Shown: in pieces, positions 4,911-20,934 of the stretch
Numbering within the stretch: the first letter of the stretch is position 1
Layout of the letters: each line of letters opens with the position of its first letter
Notes under the pieces: generated by a model
The model's database searches: none
Told to the model about the DNA's origin: nothing
What the model saw: the letters and a program-made list of their open reading frames with translations, nothing else
Assembly (NCBI GenBank): GCA_947646655.1
Contig: CANSHI010000005.1
Span: forward strand, 1,599 to 65,598
Direction: 5' to 3'
DNA: 64,000 nt
Source: an uncultured bacterium
GTDB lineage: Bacteria; Bacillota_I; Bacilli_A; RF39; UBA660
Position numbers and translations under genes: made by a program

Positions 4911-7802
4911 TCAAAATAAAGTTTGGGAAATACTTCCCTTGCCCATGATAAAGTTTTTGATTTTAACATAATCAGTAGCATAAATTGAATTATCGTTGTT
5001 CACGTCTGCTGCAAGTCTATAAGCTCCAGTTAAAGTGGTCTTACCCATAATGTGGTTTTTAATACGCACATAGTCTGTTGCATAAATATAACCGTCGCCA
5101 TTAACGTCCCCTTTTACGACGACTGTATAATTGTAATCAGTATTGTTAAAATGGAGAGTAAACTTCATAGCAGTTGCAATTAAACCTTCGTATATCTCAG
5201 TATTATTAGCAGATTTAAAGCTTTTTAAAGTGACTCCTTGTAAACCAGAAAGTTTATTTCTCAAATCTTTAATATTTGTATTGAGTGTGAAGCCTGCAAC
5301 ATAGCCGTCTTTTTTAGTTAAACCAAAGTAATTTAAAACATCTGCTTCATTCAAAGTATTTGAACTACCATTTGTGACTGTAACTTTACTAGTTAATCTC
5401 ATCGAATTTGAACCGATCGCTAAATCAGCATGTACATTTGAAACGCCCGTTTTTAAACCGCTTAATACACTGTTTTGATATTCGATAACATCACTATTTT
5501 CGACAAGGACATTATAGTTTAGCACAGTTGTAGGATTAGATTCGATACTATACGTAAATATTTCTCCAATTTTCATGTCGATTTCTTTTAAAACGCCGAC
5601 TCCTACTATGCCTTTAGAAAGTGAGTTCTCATTTAAAACATCTAATTTATGTAAAGAAGCATAATTACCAACAGGTTGCATGGAATTATTAACAGTAGTC
5701 TCATAGTAAACATTAAAAGGGACGTTATAGTAATTATCCATTATGCATTGAAGAGCGATGAATGCACCAGTGTTTGAGTTACCGTTTACTTTTCCTTGAG
5801 TAAAACTATTTTTAATAATTGCATTCATATTTAGACCTATAAATCCACCTGCATTTTTAGGAGAGTTAACACTGACTCTTGAAGAGCAGTCTTCTATGTA
5901 AGTATCATTAGAGGCATTTCCTACAAACCCTCCTGTGGAGGCTAAATCTGAAGAGAAAGAACCACTATATTCTATATTGGTTACTGTTCCACTTTTTAGG
6001 TGAATATTTTTAAGTGTTATATTCGAAGTTGTGGATGCAAAACCTCCTAAATAGTCGCCTTTGTCAGGTGTAGCAGTAATATTTTCGACGAAAAGATTTT
6101 TAATCTCCGTTTTAGTTCCATACACTCCTACCGAAGAGAACACTCCTGCCCCTTTCGAAGTAATGTTTTTAAGGGTCTTATTATTGCCGTCTAAATTTCC
6201 TTCAAAGTTGATACTAGGATAATTTTTGATATCTTTAAAATCGATGTCACTACCTAGTTTATAATACTTACCTTTAGTATCTAAACTCATGAGATACATA
6301 AAGTCTTCAGTATCACTTATAATGTATGGATCGTTTGCAGTTCCAGATCCCACTGTTTCAGGTAATGTAACGTTGAATGTAACAGAGTCAGCTGTTTCTC
6401 CTGTAACCTCAATAGCAATCCTTGAATTACTTCCGTCTGCATAGTAAATAGTCTGATTATCGAATACTCCGTTTGTGATAGAAGTTTTACCGAGTGTTTT
6501 TCTAGACATATTTAATGTAGCTTCAACTAAGTTACCTGCTCCTTCACCAAGTTTATCTTCTCCAGGTCTAAATACAAATATATGGTCTTTTTCTCCTCCA
6601 TTACCACTTTGGGCATTACCCATATATTTATTTTTTTCATTAACACGATAAACGATTATTCCCGATTTATCAGATGAGGAAAAATCGTAAGTGTTGTGCT
6701 TCTCGTGATATTCGACTATAAAGTACTCCTGCTTATTAGCATCAGGTTGAATTTTAATAGCACGTACTTCATTGTTATTTATGTACTTTGGTTTATGAAG
6801 TGTAATAGATTTTGTCGTCTTATTAATGACTGGAAGTGGCGTATGCCAGTTTGTTTCCAGGTTAAATTCACTTATAAAATATGTCAAAAAGTGCTGAGGG
6901 TTAGAACCAACGACGTTTCCCATAACGTCATAGAATCCTACTGGCTTTTGTGTCATTGAGTCGCCATAGCGGTATAAATCACTAAATCCTAATGTATGAC
7001 CAAATTCATGGATTATAGTACCATATTTTCCTCGATTTAATGAAAATAGATTGATAGACTCAGTATAATCTCCTGCATACATAAAGTTGTAATCTCCAAT
7101 ACTTTTATTTAAAATTTTAGAAGAAATGTTTCCTTTGTTACTCGATTTATGAGCCCAAAGTAAGTCTTGCCATGTAATAGAAACAGGCAGTGTATCGGCA
7201 CCTTCTACTATGAATGATATGGCATCTATTAGTCCATCATTATTTGTATCGATATCTTTGTCTGTAAAACCATAGGCACTTAATTGATTGCTGATATAGG
7301 CTGTTGCTTTATCGACTAATGCAGCTTCTCTTTCATTAGCTTCTTCTCTAGTTTTATAACCTATCGGATTTTTAGCATCGTATTTTAAATAATAACCAAT
7401 CGGTTTGTCATCTCTAAATGATTTAACTTGACCATTTTCTTTTGGAAAAATGTCAGTTGAAATAGATAGTTGACCATAACTTTCGCGTTCATAATAAGTT
7501 TTAAAAGAAGGAACTTTTATTAAGCCGTTGACTGTAAGCATTTCAAATTCATCACTATTATATATTGCTTCGGCGTTTTTAACACTTTGTTCGTCGTCCA
7601 AATGATGTTTAGTATTAGTATCACTATCGCTAAATTCGATGAAAACGACGATGTTTTGTAATTCTCTTCTACTTGCCCTAGACTCAGCACTAAGCTCAGT
7701 TTGTGTAACATTAAAAACTTCTTCTTTAGAAAGTATTTCACTGTTTGAAGGTAATAGTAAAAGAGCCGTTACTAGTAGTAATAATTTAAACAGTTTTTTC
7801 AT
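4911..7802 (-). CDS. Secreted peptidase-M6 (immune inhibitor A-like) zinc metalloprotease with C-terminal type-I dockerin repeats
   Basis: Signal peptide; HEFGHTLGFSDLY (M6-type HExxH plus D). C-terminus has two repeats, DVNGDGYIYATDYVRIKNHIMG and DVNNDNSIYATDYVKIKNFIMG, typical of dockerin Ca-binding loops. Confidence 0.65.
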   Translation of the reverse strand: MKKLFKLLLLVTALLLLPSNSEILSKEEVFNVTQTELSAESRASRRELQNIVVFIEFSDSDTNTKHHLDDEQSVKNAEAIYNSDEFEMLTVNGLIKVPSFKTYYERESYGQLSISTDIFPKENGQVKSFRDDKPIGYYLKYDAKNPIGYKTREEANEREAALVDKATAYISNQLSAYGFTDKDIDTNNDGLIDAISFIVEGADTLPVSITWQDLLWAHKSSNKGNISSKILNKSIGDYNFMYAGDYTESINLFSLNRGKYGTIIHEFGHTLGFSDLYRYGDSMTQKPVGFYDVMGNVVGSNPQHFLTYFISEFNLETNWHTPLPVINKTTKSITLHKPKYINNNEVRAIKIQPDANKQEYFIVEYHEKHNTYDFSSSDKSGIIVYRVNEKNKYMGNAQSGNGGEKDHIFVFRPGEDKLGEGAGNLVEATLNMSRKTLGKTSITNGVFDNQTIYYADGSNSRIAIEVTGETADSVTFNVTLPETVGSGTANDPYIISDTEDFMYLMSLDTKGKYYKLGSDIDFKDIKNYPSINFEGNLDGNNKTLKNITSKGAGVFSSVGVYGTKTEIKNLFVENITATPDKGDYLGGFASTTSNITLKNIHLKSGTVTNIEYSGSFSSDLASTGGFVGNASNDTYIEDCSSRVSVNSPKNAGGFIGLNMNAIIKNSFTQGKVNGNSNTGAFIALQCIMDNYYNVPFNVYYETTVNNSMQPVGNYASLHKLDVLNENSLSKGIVGVGVLKEIDMKIGEIFTYSIESNPTTVLNYNVLVENSDVIEYQNSVLSGLKTGVSNVHADLAIGSNSMRLTSKVTVTNGSSNTLNEADVLNYFGLTKKDGYVAGFTLNTNIKDLRNKLSGLQGVTLKSFKSANNTEIYEGLIATAMKFTLHFNNTDYNYTVVVKGDVNGDGYIYATDYVRIKNHIMGKTTLTGAYRLAADVNNDNSIYATDYVKIKNFIMGKGSISQTLF

Positions 7803-12001: not shown

Positions 12002-15000
12002 ATGCAAAAATTTTGTGATTTTATTTGCAAGAAAAGAAAACTAGTCGTAGTTGTTTCAGGCATCTTGCTTATCTTGTCGATTATAGGTTCGATGATGACT
12101 CATATTAACTACGATATTCTGGTGTATTTGCCTTTAGATAATGAGACTATTAGAGGCGAAAATATTTTAAGTGAAGACTTTAATATGGGTGCTTACTCGA
12201 TCGCGACAATCGAAAATATGGAAAGTAAAGATGTTCTTAAATTAGAAAGTCAGATTAAGGAAATCGACGGTGTAAATTTGGTCGGAAGTTTATATGATTT
12301 TTTAGGAACAACGATCTATGTCGATATGTTACCTTCGGAAATCTCTAGTAAACTTCATAAAGAAAATACCGATTTACTATTTATAACTTTTGAAGACGGT
12401 ATTTCTAGTGATTCGACATTGACTGCCGTAGAGGAAATTAGAAATTTAGCTCAAGGAAAAGTTAAATTTGGAGGAATGAGTTCTTTAGTATTAGATACGA
12501 TGGAGCTTGCCAATAAAGAAATAGTTATTTATATAATTATTGCTGTGTTACTTTGTCTAATCGTATTAGAAATTGCTTTAGACTCTTATATTGTTCCAGT
12601 TTTGTTGCTTGCCAATATTGGTGCTTCTATTGTCTTTAACTTAGGAAGTAATGTATTTTTAGGACAAATTTCTTATATTACAGAATCTTTAGTGGCGGTG
12701 TTGCAATTGGGTGTTACAACGGATTTCTCTATTTTCTTGTATCACTCATATGAAAAGAATAAGAAGTTATTAAAAACTAAGGAAGAGGCGATGAGTGAAT
12801 CGATTAAAGAAACGTTTACTTCTGTTACAGGAAGTAGTTTGACGACTATTGCAGGATTTTTAGTTTTATGTACAATGCAGTTGACTTTAGGTCGTGATTT
12901 GGGAATCGTTATGGCTAAGGGTGTTATGTTTGGAGTTTTATCGGTTCTTACTCTCTTCCCTAGTTTACTATTAATCGCAGATAAATTGATAGATAAAACG
13001 AGACATAAGAAGTTTGTGCCTAAATTCGATAAGTTCAATAAGCTTATTATTAAGCACCATAAACTAGTGTTTGGCGTATTTTTGTTACTATTAGTTCCAG
13101 CTTATTTGGCAAATTCAAAAGTAGAAGTTTATTATAAAATCGATCAATCCCTACCCGATAATTTGGAAAGTATTGTTGCTAATGAGGAATTAAAAACTAA
13201 ATATAATATCGTAAGTCCTGAAATTATTTTAATCGATAAAAATATGAAGACTGATGAAGTAAAAGAATTAACTGAAAAGTTAGAAGATGTCGATGGAATA
13301 GACTTTGCTTTAGGAGTTGCCGATTTAAAAAGTATGGGAATGAACACGAGTATGTTTAGTGAAGAAATTATGAGCTATTTAGAAAGTGATAAGTATCAGC
13401 TTGTAATGCTTAATTCGTTATATGATATAGCAAGCAATGAGTTGAATTTACAAGTCGAAGAAGTTAAAACTATCGTTAAGGAGTACGATGGATCTGCAAT
13501 CGTCGCAGGTGAAGGACCTTTGATGAAGGATTTAATCTCGATAAGTGATACAGATTTTAAAAATGTCAATTACTCGTCTATCATATGTATAACTCTCATA
13601 TTGTTCTTCGTTTTAAAGTCATTATCACTACCTATTTTATTAATTGTTGCCATTCAATTTGCAATATTTATGAACATGGGCTTCTCATATTTTAGTGGTA
13701 CTATTTTACCTTTCGTCGCTCCGATCGTTTTAGGTACTATTCAGTTGGGTGCGACTATCGATTATGCGATTTTGATTACTACTTGCTATTTGAATAAGAG
13801 AAAATCGGGTATGAAAAAACGAGAAGCTATGTTAGAAACTATGAATTATGCAAGTATGTCTGTTTTAGTAAGTGGTATGTGCTTCTTTGCAGCTACGTGT
13901 GGAGTTGGCTTTGTATCAAAGTTAGAGATGGTCGCATCGATTTGTACTTTAATATCTAGAGGTGCCATTATAAGTATGATAGTCGTTATGACTGTTCTGC
14001 CTTCTATTTTATTAATATTTGACAGTCTTATTATGAAGACTACTTTAAAAGGAAAGGAAGTTAAAATTATGAAGAAAAATAATAAAAAATTAGTGTCTTC
14101 TGTCATGATTGCATGTCTTTTGATGAGTGTGATTCCAATACCTGTTTTTGCTTTAAGTAAAGATGAAACGGTTAATGTTAAACTTAATCATGATGGAAGT
14201 GTAAAGAAAACGATTGTAAGTGAAAGGTTAATCAACGATTCTAAGTTGAACGTTATAGATGACAATTCTATATTAGAGAGTATCATGAATGTAAACAGTG
14301 ATAGTTCTTTTAAAAAGGATGGCGAGAAGTTATCTTGGCAAGCAGATGGAAAAGACATTTTTTATCAAGGTAGTACTACTAAAGAGTTGCCTGTAAATAC
14401 AGAGATAACTTACATGCTGAATGGAAAAAAGTCTACTGTCGATGAAATGCTTGGCAAGAGTGGCGAAGTTGTTATTGAACTTAAATTCACTAATAAGGAA
14501 AAACATTATATCAATGTCGCTGGCAGTTTGGCTACTATGTATACACCTTTTATGGTAAATGTTGGCACAATTATCGACAATGAAAACAGTAATATCAAAG
14601 TAAATAATGGTCGCGTTTTTAATAATGGGAATAAGAGTATGGTAATGGGTGTTGCCTCCCCTGGATTAAGTAAAAGTTTGGATTTGCAAGGTAGTAAAGA
14701 TATGGATAAGGTTGTCATCAGTTATGAAACATCAAAGTTTGAGCTTGCAAGTATTTATGTCATTCTTGTACCTAAAGTAATTACTAAAGAGGATATCGGA
14801 TTCATAGATGAATTTGACACTTTATATAGTAGTATGAATGCTTTAAAAAGTAATATGTCGACGATTGCCGATGGTTCTAAAACTTTAAAAAGCGGTTCGA
14901 ATGAATTGAAAAGTAAGCTAGCTAGTTCGATCGATAATTTATCAAAGGATAAAAGTAATGCTTTAAATGTTGATCAGATCGATGCGATAAGGAAGCAAGC

Positions 15001-15811
15001 TAGTCAAAGTGTTAAGTCAACTTTTACGGATGATTATAAAAGTCAATTAGCAGAAAGTGCATGGACTCAAGTTAAAAAAAGTTTGAATCCTAATGATAAT
15101 AATGTTAAGGAAATTGTATCTTCAAATGTAAAGGATGCTGTTAACTCAAATGTACAAAACGAAGTACAAAATTATTTAAATGCTTTAGTTGCTAATGGAA
15201 TAAGTTTTGATCCTAATGTTTGTGTATCTCCTTCAGTAGATCAAATGCCTATTTGTTTAGCTTTAAATTCCATAAAAAATGCAGCAACAGAAGCAGCAAA
15301 GGAATCTTCTATCAATACTGCTTCAAAAGTTTCTAGTTATGTAGCCGAAAATGTTGCTAAAAGTGTTTCAGTTAATGTTGCCGAGTCGACAGCAGAAATG
15401 GTGGCAAGCAATGTTGCAGGTACAGTAGCATTAAATGTTGCCAATCAAGTTAAAAACTCTTCTATTAGTTCAGTGAAATCGTCACTCAATACGCTTTATA
15501 CAGGTGTCTCTAAAGTCGACGATGGCATCAATTCTTTATCGAATGGTATTGGCAAATTTCAAAAAGAAGGTATTAACAAATTATCCAATACTGTCAATGG
15601 AAAAGTTAAAAATACCACTAGTAGAATGGAAGCTTTAGTTCAATTAGGCGAAGAATATCAAACTTTCGATAGTAAATCTAAAAATCATAAGGGAGAAACA
15701 AAATTCGTTATGATAATAGATGGAAAAAGTATTCCTACAGAAAAAAAGATTGAAAATACTCCACAAGAAAAAATGTCTTTTATAGAAAGAGTAAAAAATT
15801 TATTCAAATAA
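12002..15811 (+). CDS. MMPL/RND-superfamily membrane protein with a very long C-terminal extracytoplasmic coiled-coil/repeat region (YhgE/Pip-like)
   Basis: Two six-TM bundles separated by an extracytoplasmic domain (MMPL-like), then about 500 aa of low-complexity N/S/V-rich coiled-coil; GGAGGA RBS. Confidence 0.55.
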   Translation: MQKFCDFICKKRKLVVVVSGILLILSIIGSMMTHINYDILVYLPLDNETIRGENILSEDFNMGAYSIATIENMESKDVLKLESQIKEIDGVNLVGSLYDFLGTTIYVDMLPSEISSKLHKENTDLLFITFEDGISSDSTLTAVEEIRNLAQGKVKFGGMSSLVLDTMELANKEIVIYIIIAVLLCLIVLEIALDSYIVPVLLLANIGASIVFNLGSNVFLGQISYITESLVAVLQLGVTTDFSIFLYHSYEKNKKLLKTKEEAMSESIKETFTSVTGSSLTTIAGFLVLCTMQLTLGRDLGIVMAKGVMFGVLSVLTLFPSLLLIADKLIDKTRHKKFVPKFDKFNKLIIKHHKLVFGVFLLLLVPAYLANSKVEVYYKIDQSLPDNLESIVANEELKTKYNIVSPEIILIDKNMKTDEVKELTEKLEDVDGIDFALGVADLKSMGMNTSMFSEEIMSYLESDKYQLVMLNSLYDIASNELNLQVEEVKTIVKEYDGSAIVAGEGPLMKDLISISDTDFKNVNYSSIICITLILFFVLKSLSLPILLIVAIQFAIFMNMGFSYFSGTILPFVAPIVLGTIQLGATIDYAILITTCYLNKRKSGMKKREAMLETMNYASMSVLVSGMCFFAATCGVGFVSKLEMVASICTLISRGAIISMIVVMTVLPSILLIFDSLIMKTTLKGKEVKIMKKNNKKLVSSVMIACLLMSVIPIPVFALSKDETVNVKLNHDGSVKKTIVSERLINDSKLNVIDDNSILESIMNVNSDSSFKKDGEKLSWQADGKDIFYQGSTTKELPVNTEITYMLNGKKSTVDEMLGKSGEVVIELKFTNKEKHYINVAGSLATMYTPFMVNVGTIIDNENSNIKVNNGRVFNNGNKSMVMGVASPGLSKSLDLQGSKDMDKVVISYETSKFELASIYVILVPKVITKEDIGFIDEFDTLYSSMNALKSNMSTIADGSKTLKSGSNELKSKLASSIDNLSKDKSNALNVDQIDAIRKQASQSVKSTFTDDYKSQLAESAWTQVKKSLNPNDNNVKEIVSSNVKDAVNSNVQNEVQNYLNALVANGISFDPNVCVSPSVDQMPICLALNSIKNAATEAAKESSINTASKVSSYVAENVAKSVSVNVAESTAEMVASNVAGTVALNVANQVKNSSISSVKSSLNTLYTGVSKVDDGINSLSNGIGKFQKEGINKLSNTVNGKVKNTTSRMEALVQLGEEYQTFDSKSKNHKGETKFVMIIDGKSIPTEKKIENTPQEKMSFIERVKNLFK

Positions 15812-15855: not shown

Positions 15856-17058
15856 TTAAAAATTGTCATCTAAAAGAAAATCGATTAAATTTAAATGTAC
15901 AATTCCATCTTTTGATAAATCTTTTTTTTCTAAAGAAATAACGAATTTAGGATAATTATCTGTAATAACTTTAAATGCTCCAAACTCTCTTTCCATAGTA
16001 GAATTATCTTTCAAATCATAAGTAACTTGTATATATTTGGTCAATCCATTTTTTTTTGCTACAAAGTCTATTTCACCATTTTTTGTTTTACCTATATACA
16101 CTTCATACTCTTTGTTAAGTAATTCATTATAAACAATATTTTCTAACATTATATAGTTTTTAAATTCAGAATTATTGTTTTTAATTTGGGCAATCCCTAA
16201 ATCAGTTACATAATATTTGTTCAAAGTTTTTAATAATCCTTTTCCATGAACATCATATCGATATACTTTTTTGATAATTAAAGCTTTACATAAAGCTTCT
16301 ATATATGTATAAATAGTTTCAGTTGATACTTTTTTGTATTCTCGTTCAAGATAATTTATAATATTTTCACAAGAAAATTCTCTACCTGTTGTATCAATTA
16401 AATATTGTAAAATCATATTGAATAGAATTGTATCTTGAAGTTTAAGTCTTGTGATGATATCTCTTAAAATAATAGAATCAAAAACGCTGTGTAAATAGTT
16501 TTTAATATCAGCTTCATCGGTAAATTCGCATCTATTAGGTAAACCTCCCCATTTTGCATAATCATTAAAGCTTTCTAAATCAAAGGCATCTTTTTTTGTC
16601 AAGGCTATATATTCTTTGTATGATAAAGGATTAATATTAAATAATACATATCTTCCAGATAATACGGTAGATAACTCATCCGATAGCATTTTACTATTAG
16701 AACCTGTAATAAATATGCTAATATTATTTATCGATGCTCTAATTGAATTTATAACATCTTCAAATTTATCAACATTTTGTATCTCATCTAAAAATACATA
16801 ATATTTTTTATTATCAACAATTTTTTCTTTTATATATTTATTGAGCTCTTTATAGTTTTTTAGATCCTCAAATTCTATAAACTCAAAGTTTATTTTTATA
16901 ATATGCTCTTCATCAATTTTTTTCGTTGTTTTAAGTTCTTCGATTATTTGATTAAGTATTACTGTTTTACCGCTTCTTCTAATTCCTACTAGTATTTTTA
17001 CCAAGTCAGAGTCATAAAAACCCCTAATTTTTTTTAAGTACTTTTCTCTAATTAACAT
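15856..17058 (-). CDS. AAA-family ATPase with DUF4143-type C-terminal domain
   Basis: Walker A GIRRSGKT, Walker B YVFLDEIQ; overall AAA_14/DUF4143 architecture. Confidence 0.65.
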   Translation of the reverse strand: MLIREKYLKKIRGFYDSDLVKILVGIRRSGKTVILNQIIEELKTTKKIDEEHIIKINFEFIEFEDLKNYKELNKYIKEKIVDNKKYYVFLDEIQNVDKFEDVINSIRASINNISIFITGSNSKMLSDELSTVLSGRYVLFNINPLSYKEYIALTKKDAFDLESFNDYAKWGGLPNRCEFTDEADIKNYLHSVFDSIILRDIITRLKLQDTILFNMILQYLIDTTGREFSCENIINYLEREYKKVSTETIYTYIEALCKALIIKKVYRYDVHGKGLLKTLNKYYVTDLGIAQIKNNNSEFKNYIMLENIVYNELLNKEYEVYIGKTKNGEIDFVAKKNGLTKYIQVTYDLKDNSTMEREFGAFKVITDNYPKFVISLEKKDLSKDGIVHLNLIDFLLDDNF

Positions 17059-17199
17059 TTATCATCACCTAGTAAAATTATAACTTATAAATGAACAAAA
17101 GTAAAGTTATTTCGTTTCGACAAAATAACTTTACAAACGGTTGAATTATTTTGTTTGAACAAAATAACTTTTTCTATCATATGAATTAAAAATAGATTA

Positions 17200-17433
17200 T
17201 TAATCTGTTTCTTTCTCAAAATTAATTTTCTCTTCTTGTTCAACGATTAGTTCGTCTATATCATTAAAAGCATTTTCTATAGCTTCACTATGGTATCTTT
17301 CATACATGTCATATACTATTTGGGTAAGATTTAGTTTATCTAGTTTATTGATAATATCTGTCGTAGAAGTTTGCTTGTATTCTGAATAATTTTCTAGTAA
17401 ATAAATAAAAAATTCGTCTTCTTTTTTCATCAA
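17200..17433 (-). CDS. Hypothetical small acidic protein (77 aa), third gene of the DUF3990 operon
   Basis: Its start overlaps the upstream stop by 4 nt (ATGA); Glu/Asp-rich. Confidence 0.4.
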   Translation of the reverse strand: MMKKEDEFFIYLLENYSEYKQTSTTDIINKLDKLNLTQIVYDMYERYHSEAIENAFNDIDELIVEQEEKINFEKETD

Positions 17434-17696
17434 TCGATACTCCTCAAATATACTGAGTTTTGTGGTACTCCAGTAATTAACTCATTTTCTAATATATCAA
17501 ATATTGCTGGACTTCCAAATTCGTACATTGCACAGTTTTTATCTTCTATAAGTTTGTATGTTTTAGAATTAAGGAATTTTCTGTAAGCTTCAAAAAACGA
17601 AAAATCATATTTTTCCATCAACATTTCTACCACTTCTTTGGAATAATATATTAGATATCTGCTTGAAATCTTATTCATAAATTTTGACCTCCTCAA
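17430..17696 (-). CDS. DUF3791-like protein
   Basis: 88-aa protein immediately downstream of, and overlapping, a DUF3990-like gene, which is the usual pairing. Confidence 0.45.
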   Translation of the reverse strand: MRRSKFMNKISSRYLIYYSKEVVEMLMEKYDFSFFEAYRKFLNSKTYKLIEDKNCAMYEFGSPAIFDILENELITGVPQNSVYLRSID

Positions 17697-18147
17697 ATAC
17701 TAGATATGCTAGTGCTTTCTCAGTTTTAAAAACTATTTGGTCTTTAAGATTTTGAGTTAATAGCCTTTTTATTGCTTCTTCCTCATTGTATACATTGTTA
17801 AGATAATCATTAATTACTGGCATAGTATTATCATTCGCAACTGGTCCAATTATAATGTCATAATTATTTTCTTCGTATAACCTTTTTCTATTTAACGATA
17901 CAAAATGTAACCATTCTGTGTTTGGACTATCAAATTTTAATATTTTTAAATTGTTATTTTCATTGTAATTGTATACTGAAACTGACTTATTTCCTTTTTT
18001 TCTTCGCATTGTAGTTGTAAAAGACCATTTTATTGCTTGGTCTAAATCCGAAGTAAGATAAAACCCGTTTCCAAAATCTAAATTTCTTTTACTTTTTATT
18101 ATTTTAGGTTTTTCAACTGTTACATTACTTCCATGATATAATTTCAT
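17671..18147 (-). CDS. DUF3990-like protein; possible PARP/ART-like fold (H-G-S and G-x-G-x-Y-L motifs)
   Basis: Probable start is MKLYHGS, preceded by GAGGA; the track ORF begins at an upstream TTG. Contains LYHGS near the N-terminus, then FGNGFYLTSD. Confidence 0.45.
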   Translation of the reverse strand: MKLYHGSNVTVEKPKIIKSKRNLDFGNGFYLTSDLDQAIKWSFTTTMRRKKGNKSVSVYNYNENNNLKILKFDSPNTEWLHFVSLNRKRLYEENNYDIIIGPVANDNTMPVINDYLNNVYNEEEAIKRLLTQNLKDQIVFKTEKALAYLVFEEVKIYE

Positions 18148-18224
18148 ATTAACACGTTCCTCTAAATATATTCTATCATTTTTTAATGGGTTGCACAACT
18201 AGTTGCAATACTATTCTTAATTCT

Positions 18225-20172: not shown

Positions 20173-20934
20173 CTACTTTTTAGCACGCTTCTTCATTAAG
20201 CTCATTACTTTAGCATCATTTTTAATTCCATCTTTTATTTGAAATGGTAAGACAACAGTTTGTGGAAAATATTTTGCCAGTGAATCTATTTCACTTAAAC
20301 TCATTTTATAAATTGGATATTTTATATTGCCTTCATATAAACTTAAAAACTCTTCTATTTGGTCTTCATCTACTTGATCAAAACATCCATCCATAAACTG
20401 TTCAAGTCTTAAAAGAGATTTAGGTATATTTATTATGTTTGATTTTCTATATGTTCTACGATCATCAAAATGATAAAAACCCTGTTCTATTACTAAACCT
20501 TTTATATTAGAAGGGCTTAAACTTGTATCATCAATTACTTCTACGTAATTAGATGCTCCTAATCTTTTATAATATGATTCTAATAAATTTATATTAGGTT
20601 CTCCCTCTAATGGAATAACGTCGTGGTTAGTATCATAAAATTTATCGTCAAAAGACAATTTAGAAGCCTTTATAGTTGTCATTCTTTCTTGTAAAACTTC
20701 TGGGTTAAATGCTCTTTTTAATACTTGACTATTAGAAGTAGTTACAGCTTGTAAACAGCGTTTTTTTTCAGGAATCGTTTCAACTCCAGCTTTTTTAAAT
20801 TCATAAAATTTATTTTTATTAGGGATAAGCGGATAAACTAATACTTCTTTATCGTCTCCGTCGTATAAATACATTACTCCATCTGTTCTTTGATAGTGTT
20901 TCATAATCAAAACCTCCTGAATTAATTGTATCAT
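20173..20934 (-). CDS. Hypothetical protein (253 aa)
   Basis: Long ORF with no recognisable motif. Confidence 0.35.
   Translation of the reverse strand: MIQLIQEVLIMKHYQRTDGVMYLYDGDDKEVLVYPLIPNKNKFYEFKKAGVETIPEKKRCLQAVTTSNSQVLKRAFNPEVLQERMTTIKASKLSFDDKFYDTNHDVIPLEGEPNINLLESYYKRLGASNYVEVIDDTSLSPSNIKGLVIEQGFYHFDDRRTYRKSNIINIPKSLLRLEQFMDGCFDQVDEDQIEEFLSLYEGNIKYPIYKMSLSEIDSLAKYFPQTVVLPFQIKDGIKNDAKVMSLMKKRAKK

Follow-up and report, generated by a model that had tools for sequence, protein, structure and literature searches.

A cassette of three small genes, termed A, B and C and together called the triad, was found on the minus strand of a 64,000-nucleotide (nt) stretch of DNA from an uncultured bacterium (GTDB lineage Bacteria; Bacillota_I; Bacilli_A; RF39; UBA660; GenBank assembly GCA_947646655.1, contig CANSHI010000005.1, positions 1,599 to 65,598), and this whole stretch is referred to as the window. 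The listing of open reading frames (ORFs) in the window was found to contain three consecutive ORFs at 17200-18198, as the preliminary description of this DNA had stated. The longest versions of these ORFs (175, 88 and 77 amino acids (aa)) begin at upstream TTG codons, and the overlaps of 26 nt and 4 nt given in that description derive from these starts. Each of the three genes was also found to contain an ATG codon with a Shine-Dalgarno sequence, namely AGAGGAA for A, GAGGAGG for B and GAGGAG for C, as read from the sequence. The genes do overlap when the ATG starts are taken, with an overlap of 8 nt between A and B (ATGAATAA) followed by an overlap of 1 nt between B and C (TGATG). The coordinates of the genes and of the other features are given in Table 1.

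The gap between gene A and the upstream ABC-2 permease gene was 77 nt long and was found to contain an extended -10-like element (TGATAGAAT), which may belong to a possible promoter of the triad's own. This candidate was not listed by the consensus promoter scan, and its -35 element matched the consensus at 3 of 6 positions only. Gene C was found to be followed by tandem hairpins, and the RNA fold of this region (17205-17090) gave a z-score of -4.4, with 0 of 200 shuffles folding equally well. The three genes are likely to form their own transcription unit because of the promoter-like element in the gap and the tandem hairpins after C. Both hairpins (17101-17169, between C and the gene of the ATPase PDC-S01) carry the repeated motif GTTATTTTGT, and the T-run was present in the second hairpin only. 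An operator-like inverted repeat was looked for upstream of A and none was found. The guanine-plus-cytosine (GC) content showed a mild dip at the triad (0.22-0.27 against 0.27-0.33), which is not decisive for horizontal transfer. The locus of the window is an ordinary, intact and self-contained copy of the triad cassette.

Table 1. Features of the triad locus and NADAR genes near related triads (positions are those of the window unless a locus is named)
Feature	Position	Strand	Description
Gene A	17671..18147	-	158 aa, MKLYHGS...; DUF3990, ADP-ribosyltransferase (ART) fold; predicted effector/toxin
Gene B	17430..17678	-	82 aa, MNKISS...; acidic helical protein of a family without Pfam model; predicted inhibitor part
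Gene C	17200..17430	-	76 aa, MKKEDE...; very acidic DUF3791 protein; predicted second inhibitor part
Shine-Dalgarno AGAGGAA of A	18157..18163	-	9 nt upstream of the ATG of A; read from sequence
Possible own promoter of the triad	18170..18198	-	TTGTGC, 17 nt, TG-A-TAGAAT (extended -10); in the 77-nt gap; read from sequence
Hairpin 1	17144..17169	-	After the stop codon of C; RNA fold
Hairpin 2, terminator-like end of the triad	17101..17134	-	15-base-pair stem, then T-run; terminator scan and RNA fold
AAA_14 + DUF4143 ATPase, PADLOC PDC-S01 (E 7e-137)	15856..17058	-	Directly downstream; separately transcribed, outside the triad
NADAR genes near triads	L033 1891-2364; L047 4984-5355; L067 3427-3903; L085 3493-3966	same strand as triad	

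The product of gene A (MKLYHGS...FGNGFYLTSD) was found to match Pfam DUF3990 (PF13151) with an E-value (E) of 1e-51 and a score of 175.1 bits against a cut-off of 32.2, its residues 1-150 covering positions 1-151 of the 152 in the profile, and its earlier naming as DUF3990 was confirmed. A also contained a full-length match under threshold to Pfam ART-PolyVal (E 0.002, 19 against 31 bits), and such a match was present in 33 of 36 DUF3990 homologues (best E 2.8e-4). DUF3990 has already been placed in the ART clan by Pfam (PMC7955679). No Tox-ART-HYD1 match was found in Pfam for the 36 homologues, no DarT (DUF4433) match for A in Pfam or PADLOC, and no CmdT model match in PADLOC. No NCBIfam model matched A, B or C, the PHROGs matches of A were weak and restricted to families of unknown function, and sequence searches of the PDB with A and with the A profile gave nothing.

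More than 1,100 DUF3990 homologues exist, and conservation was followed in the above 36 homologues at 55-68% identity and then in a set widened by homologues from plasmids and phage contigs, reaching down to about 25% identity. The 36 homologues were found to contain invariant or nearly invariant H5 (35/36), G6, S7, D24, F25, G26, G28, F29, Y30, T32, Q37, A38, W41 and R48, followed by the presence of similarly conserved D97, G101-D106, Q132, D136 and Q137. The residues Y4, H5, G6, S7, P14, D24, G28, F29, Y30 and A38 were found to be invariant down to about 25% identity, followed by W79, L80, R87, G101, A104, D106 and Q137, and position 97 was always occupied by either D or E. The HGS and GxGxY-type motifs pointed out in the preliminary description are hence not chance resemblances. 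The homologue P0055 was found to contain R in place of H at the H-G-S histidine.

The AlphaFold2 model of A (predicted local distance difference test (pLDDT) 92.3, predicted template-modelling score (pTM) 0.85) contained seven strands, with H5-G6-S7 on strand 1 (residues 2-7) and Y30 on strand 2 (residues 29-32), followed by a helix. The top Foldseek matches in the PDB were ART-fold proteins only, namely the RES toxins 9r35 and 6gw6 (E 1e-3, template-modelling score (TM) 0.49-0.53), VPA0770, cholix toxin and Arr. Among the viral models of BFVD, the matches were an unnamed viral protein (E 2e-11, TM 0.74), ART-PolyVal proteins (E 2e-6) and polyvalent proteins. The ART assignment of A is drawn from the ART-PolyVal matches in 33 of the 36 homologues together with these Foldseek matches and the Pfam clan. 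Judged by its motifs and its model, A has the split beta-sheet ART fold with the H-G-S and Tyr motifs of the H-Y-[EDQ] clade, which includes poly-ADP-ribose polymerase (PARP) and diphtheria toxin. The likeness of A to PARP, ART and Tpt1 proteins proposed earlier stands at this superfamily level, where the structure prediction gave ART-fold matches, and does not extend to membership of the PARP or Tpt1 family. The candidates for the third catalytic residue were Q137 at the start of strand 136-140, D/E97 at the start of the preceding strand (98-102), and D106 on the loop after strand 98-102. Q137 opens the penultimate strand of A, presumably the position of E988 in PARP1, and this correspondence is a lead and not a test. 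Gene A is under strong purifying selection, with its H-Y-type ART fold intact.

The product of gene C was found to match Pfam DUF3791 (PF12668) with an E-value of 2e-12 and a score of 47.3 bits against a cut-off of 25, while B had no Pfam match even at E 10 and nothing in NCBIfam or PHROGs. The preliminary description had given the name DUF3791 to the middle gene; the labels were swapped, and the acidic third protein is the DUF3791 member. The B family comprised 89 cluster representatives among 1.84 billion proteins and was found to contain a conserved C-terminal motif, IFDMWE-x-E-x-ITG-x-PRNS-x-YLR. The conserved columns were kept in B and C of the window except in B, where the 96%-conserved W63 was replaced by L and the R of the motif by Q. 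That B might be a divergent DUF3791 protein paralogous to C was considered and rejected (BLASTP E 0.94, hhalign probability 1.6%, disjoint jackhmmer match sets). The isoelectric point of C in the window was 4.3, and the family medians were 4.7 for B and 4.6 for C, which are acidic, and 8.0 for A, which is mildly basic.

Bacteroides plasmids and one phage contig were found to contain a B-C fusion, a single protein of 149-152 aa upstream of A, in which residues 11-75 matched the B profile (E 2e-12) followed by residues 90-148 matching the C profile (E 8e-15). At least 239 B-C fusion proteins were found, and B of the window aligned to the N-terminal half whereas C aligned to the C-terminal half. 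The two small proteins belong together, since they are fused in Bacteroides. The model of the B-C fusion was all-helical (pLDDT 88, pTM 0.54). A single protein of 246 aa (P0261) was found to contain a complete DUF3990 domain and a complete B domain in one chain. In two loci a further B-C pair, with no A of its own, lay just downstream of a complete triad (L046 4976-5626 and L067 5342-5835). The fusions and the joint duplication suggest that B and C work jointly and in concert with A. The spare B-C pairs in these two loci resemble the extra immunity genes of polymorphic-toxin loci.

C also matched three PADLOC HsdS models (E 2e-5 to 0.02) at profile positions of about 330-400 of 420. A relationship of C to HsdS was rejected, as the C profile found nothing in the HsdS proteins beside triads, and the matches are probably a seed artefact caused by HsdS-DUF3791 read-through sequences in the model seeds. 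No helix-turn-helix (HTH) domain was detected in B or C by Pfam or by Foldseek of the B-C fusion model, and no match of B or C to SecB or to any CmdTAC model was found in Pfam or PADLOC.

The triad was followed in 80 species-level genome loci and 10 metagenome loci, with counts taken over 91 loci, and B homologues were gathered from gene context since a k-mer search with B alone gave 2 matches. The A-B-C triad was kept in 89 of the 91 loci. When the ORFs downstream of A were searched with profiles, a B-like gene was found in 90/91 and a C-like gene in 90/91 loci, and the two match sets were disjoint. Genes A and B were found to overlap in 82 of 89 loci (by 4 nt in 46 and by 8 nt in 22), followed by an overlap or a gap of at most 3 nt between B and C in 78 of 89. 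The 8-nt and 1-nt overlaps of the window are junction types that were found in these relatives.

The triad was present in at least nine phyla (Bacillota, Spirochaetota, Lentisphaerota, Actinomycetota, Bacteroidota, Fibrobacterota, Pseudomonadota, Campylobacterota and Planctomycetota), and its hosts, mostly from gut or rumen, were found among Bacilli, Clostridia, Treponema, Lentisphaeria, Bifidobacterium, Fibrobacter, Bacteroides, Campylobacter, Pasteurellaceae, Desulfovibrionaceae and Planctomycetes. This host range points to horizontal spread of the triad. At least 576 matches were found in the species-level genome collection, and a DUF3990 homologue was present in 87 plasmid records and in 7 gut phage contigs (unverified). 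The plasmids of Clostridium botulinum (pCLI) contained the order C-A-B. The triad has the genomic features of type II toxin-antitoxin systems, being composed of small, adjacent and coupled genes that are mobile and widespread.

The three products of the window matched the PADLOC models PDC-M13A (E 1.3e-67), PDC-M13B (E 2.9e-27) and PDC-M13C (E 1.6e-29), contiguously and in that order. The PDCs are phage defence candidates predicted from embedding in BREX, DISARM or type I restriction-modification (R-M) systems (bioRxiv 10.1101/2024.01.29.577857; Payne et al.), and in the literature found PDC-M13 figured only in a rumen census, which counted 3,324 PDC-M13 systems in 6,530 genomes (PMC13356809). 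The window triad and PDC-M13 show no structural difference, and relatives of the triad are embedded in type I R-M operons, whereas the window copy lies outside R-M and PDC-M13 is itself only a prediction. The statement that DUF3990 and DUF3791 are functionally uncharacterised holds in the searchable literature, but the triad is already catalogued as a defence candidate under the name PDC-M13, and the placement of DUF3990 in the ART clan is already in Pfam.

The neighbourhood of the triad was taken from 78 species-level loci with 142 neighbour proteins, among which HsdS was the commonest immediate family (12-13), followed by HsdR (4) and HsdM (3). Type I R-M genes were found within 2 genes of the triad in 15 of the 78 loci, and an R-M gene was found to flank the triad directly, on the same strand and with a short gap, in at least 10 loci (L018, L030, L031, L033, L035, L046, L050, L058, L069 and L082). 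L069 contained the order hsdM-hsdS-ABC-hsdR, and the triad of L033 and of L082 was placed between two half-size hsdS genes. The plasmids of Moraxella contained the order hsdM-A-B-C-hsdS with 4-nt overlaps throughout. This census of R-M neighbours is not new, since it recovers the basis of PADLOC's listing. No R-M system was found near the window triad.

A NADAR-domain gene (E 1e-33 to 2e-49) was found on the same strand within 2 genes of the triad in 4 of the 78 loci, a sample too small to interpret. The NADAR gene directly adjoined the triad in three of the four, and a half-hsdS gene intervened in L033. NADAR strips ADP-ribose off the guanine and cytosine of nucleic acids and is the antitoxin to DarT1 and YarT (PMC11543638, PMC11125620, PMC12945103). 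No macrodomain or NADAR gene was present at the window locus. The neighbours of triads other than R-M and NADAR genes were housekeeping genes.

The triad of the window was found to lie between an operon of GntR, ABC-ATPase and ABC-2 permease genes and the PDC-S01 ATPase gene, with a gene for an MMPL transporter nearby. The PDC-S01 family also adjoins the triad in L017, L019 and L029, and the one test found reported that PDC-S01 did not protect E. coli B from T4, T5 or T7 (bioRxiv 10.1101/2024.09.26.614923). The MMPL-family gene was a single ORF of 1269 aa in the window (12002-15811, plus strand), and the near-identical metagenome contig L001 (4382-8189) contained two genes of 961 and 304 aa in its place; this split is a frameshift or an assembly difference in the window or in L001. 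An ORF of 253 aa upstream of the GntR-ABC operon (20173-20934, minus strand) had no significant match in any of Pfam, PADLOC, NCBIfam and PHROGs, the best being one of E 0.08 in PHROGs. The window, with a GC content near 27%, was also found to contain a 963-aa M6-type peptidase with a type I dockerin domain (4911-7802, minus strand), and the dockerin and the GC content together suggest a Clostridia-type host able to form a cellulosome.

The triad most likely acts in the manner of toxin-antitoxin or abortive-infection modules, with an ART effector of the H-Y type and an inhibitor composed of two proteins, and we regard this reading as probable and not as firm. The idea of a toxin with partners fits the translational coupling, the permuted order, the B-C and A-B fusions, the extra B-C pairs, the plasmid carriage and the use of DUF3990 as the C-terminal toxin tip of Rhs proteins of the type VI secretion system (PMC4524185, PMC10763514). 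We infer that A is catalytic, that it is toxic and that B and C neutralise it, and likewise what its trigger and target would be; the proposed steps are as follows. A would be a minimal ART whose nicotinamide adenine dinucleotide (NAD+) site is formed by H5-G-S and F-G-x-G-F-Y30. B and C would be made in a fixed ratio with A through translational coupling and would form a heteromeric inhibitor of A, possibly also a sensor. A may be released upon phage attack, upon loss of the element or upon failure of a linked R-M enzyme, and free A would then use NAD+ to ADP-ribosylate an essential target, so that the infected cell, or a cell without the element, stops growing. The preferred guess for this target is a base of RNA or DNA, which the NADAR link and the precedents of Tre23, YarT and DarT make the most attractive one; drawn by analogy, it is the weakest step of the mechanism.

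The nearest named family to A by both sequence and structure is ART-PolyVal (PF18760), the ART domain of polyvalent proteins of phages and conjugative elements (Salmonella phage Mutine protein, E 2e-6). The match lies under the Pfam cut-off, and A is free-standing with two small partners whereas ART-PolyVal is a domain of a giant injected protein. Tre23, an Rhs ART-HYD1 toxin that ADP-ribosylates 23S rRNA (PMC8661411), was found to contain the catalytic residues H8 and Y33 at a spacing of 25 residues, equal to that of H5 and Y30 in A. Tre23 and YarT are, like A, small ARTs of the H-Y-[EDQ] clade, the two being bacterial toxins and A a predicted one. YarT, a NADAR-linked ART toxin, is neutralised by NADAR (PMC11125620). 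The immunity to these two toxins is provided by Tri23 or by a NADAR enzyme, whereas the triad contains two tiny non-enzymatic proteins. The Xre-RES and MbcT-MbcA systems likewise contain a small ART-fold toxin with a bound antitoxin encoded alongside, and RES proteins gave the best solved-structure matches (9r35, 6gw6). RES proteins use an R-E-S site, degrade NAD+ and are held by a single Xre-HTH antitoxin, whereas the triad contains two partners without a detected HTH. The proposed logic of the triad agrees in general terms with that of DarTG and CmdTAC, in which an ART effector that modifies DNA (DarT) or mRNA (CmdT) is unleashed by phage, CmdTAC being also of three components (PMC11618068). 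Their partners are the DarG macrodomain or NADAR and the SecB-like chaperone CmdC, and B and C match neither.

Several observations weigh against the toxin-antitoxin reading. The structural matches of A in the PDB were modest, with TM near 0.5 and E near 1e-3, and its closest solved structures are NAD+-degrading RES toxins and not transferases. The third catalytic position has three candidates in the model, Q137, D106 and D/E97. B and C are without recognisable relatives, as sequence searches of the PDB with either gave nothing and the Foldseek search of the PDB with the B-C fusion model gave nothing significant (best E about 1), and gene context is the single source of the inhibitor role predicted for them. 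The A-B fusion P0261 is known from one cluster representative, and a frameshift or an error of gene calling could have produced it. Most triads, that of the window included, were found among housekeeping or transporter genes and not in defence islands. NADAR was present in only the four loci, and B was truncated in L067 and A in L085. The literature search found no paper testing PDC-M13, DUF3990 or DUF3791.

The closest solved structures suggest a different activity for A, namely that of an NAD+-consuming toxin (glycohydrolase or phosphorylase) which, like RES or MbcT, kills by NAD+ depletion, with B and C still acting as inhibitors. This would suit the best PDB matches, i.e. the RES toxins of Xre-RES systems and VPA0770, and the minimal domain of 158 aa without an obvious substrate-binding extension. 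The conserved H5 and Y30, however, follow the H-Y pattern of transferases and not R-E-S, the nearest family by sequence and structure is ART-PolyVal with a TM to RES of only about 0.5, and the recurrent NADAR neighbour makes sense only with an ADP-ribose adduct. NAD+ depletion as the mode of action is considered improbable.

A little less probable again is a non-toxic role, in which A would ADP-ribosylate a small molecule, in the way that Arr modifies rifamycins, or tune a partner, for example a type I R-M enzyme, with B and C as adaptors or regulators. The partial Foldseek matches to Arr agree with such a role, but they span 65-71 columns only. The co-transcription with hsdM, hsdS and hsdR in about 10 loci and the many triads among housekeeping genes could likewise be expected of a modifier, yet most triads, including that of the window, have no R-M neighbour. 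The same domain serves as the Rhs toxin tip described above, and strict coupling of the three genes, changes of their order, fusions and spare B-C pairs are what toxin-immunity systems typically show. True membership of A in the PARP family or in the Tpt1/KptA family of RNA 2'-phosphotransferases is judged refuted. Its HGS and FGxGFY do resemble the PARP1 motifs H862-G-S and F-G-K-G-I-Y896, and hhalign of the A profile with a PARP1 segment pairs these motifs (HGS and FGxGxY) and nothing else, at a non-significant probability of 1.8%. Against membership, the 36 homologues have no Pfam PARP or PTS_2-RNA match even at E 1, the H-H pattern of Tpt1 is absent with Tyr and not His as the second motif residue, and no PARP or Tpt1 chain was found among the PDB Foldseek matches up to E 10.

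The toxin-antitoxin reading may be extended to a more specific proposal, which is put forward tentatively and is considered rather unlikely in its full form. DUF3990 would be a new family of ADP-ribosyltransferase toxins that modify guanine or cytosine in RNA or DNA, reversibly by NADAR, and would be held by a so far undescribed inhibitor of novel fold, composed of B and DUF3791, that doubles as the trigger. The toxin would be set off by phage infection or, where the triad lies within an hsdM-hsdS-hsdR operon, by the disabling of the type I restriction enzyme. PrrC, which guards EcoprrI, is the model for such a restriction-coupled trigger.

Cassettes of the DUF3990/DUF3791 type abound in the bacteria of gut and rumen. 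As far as the literature shows, the leads added here are that B is a family of its own, that it occurs fused to C and, in a single protein, to A, that the gene order can change, that NADAR genes lie near some triads, and which residues may be catalytic. The choice of experiment is narrowed, as the predicted H-Y-type NAD+ site appears intact in A from its motifs and model, and the links to NADAR and to type I R-M hint at nucleic-acid ADP-ribosylation with a restriction-coupled trigger. If the proposal is true, the triad would add a new family of ART toxins together with a new two-subunit antitoxin to bacterial immunity.

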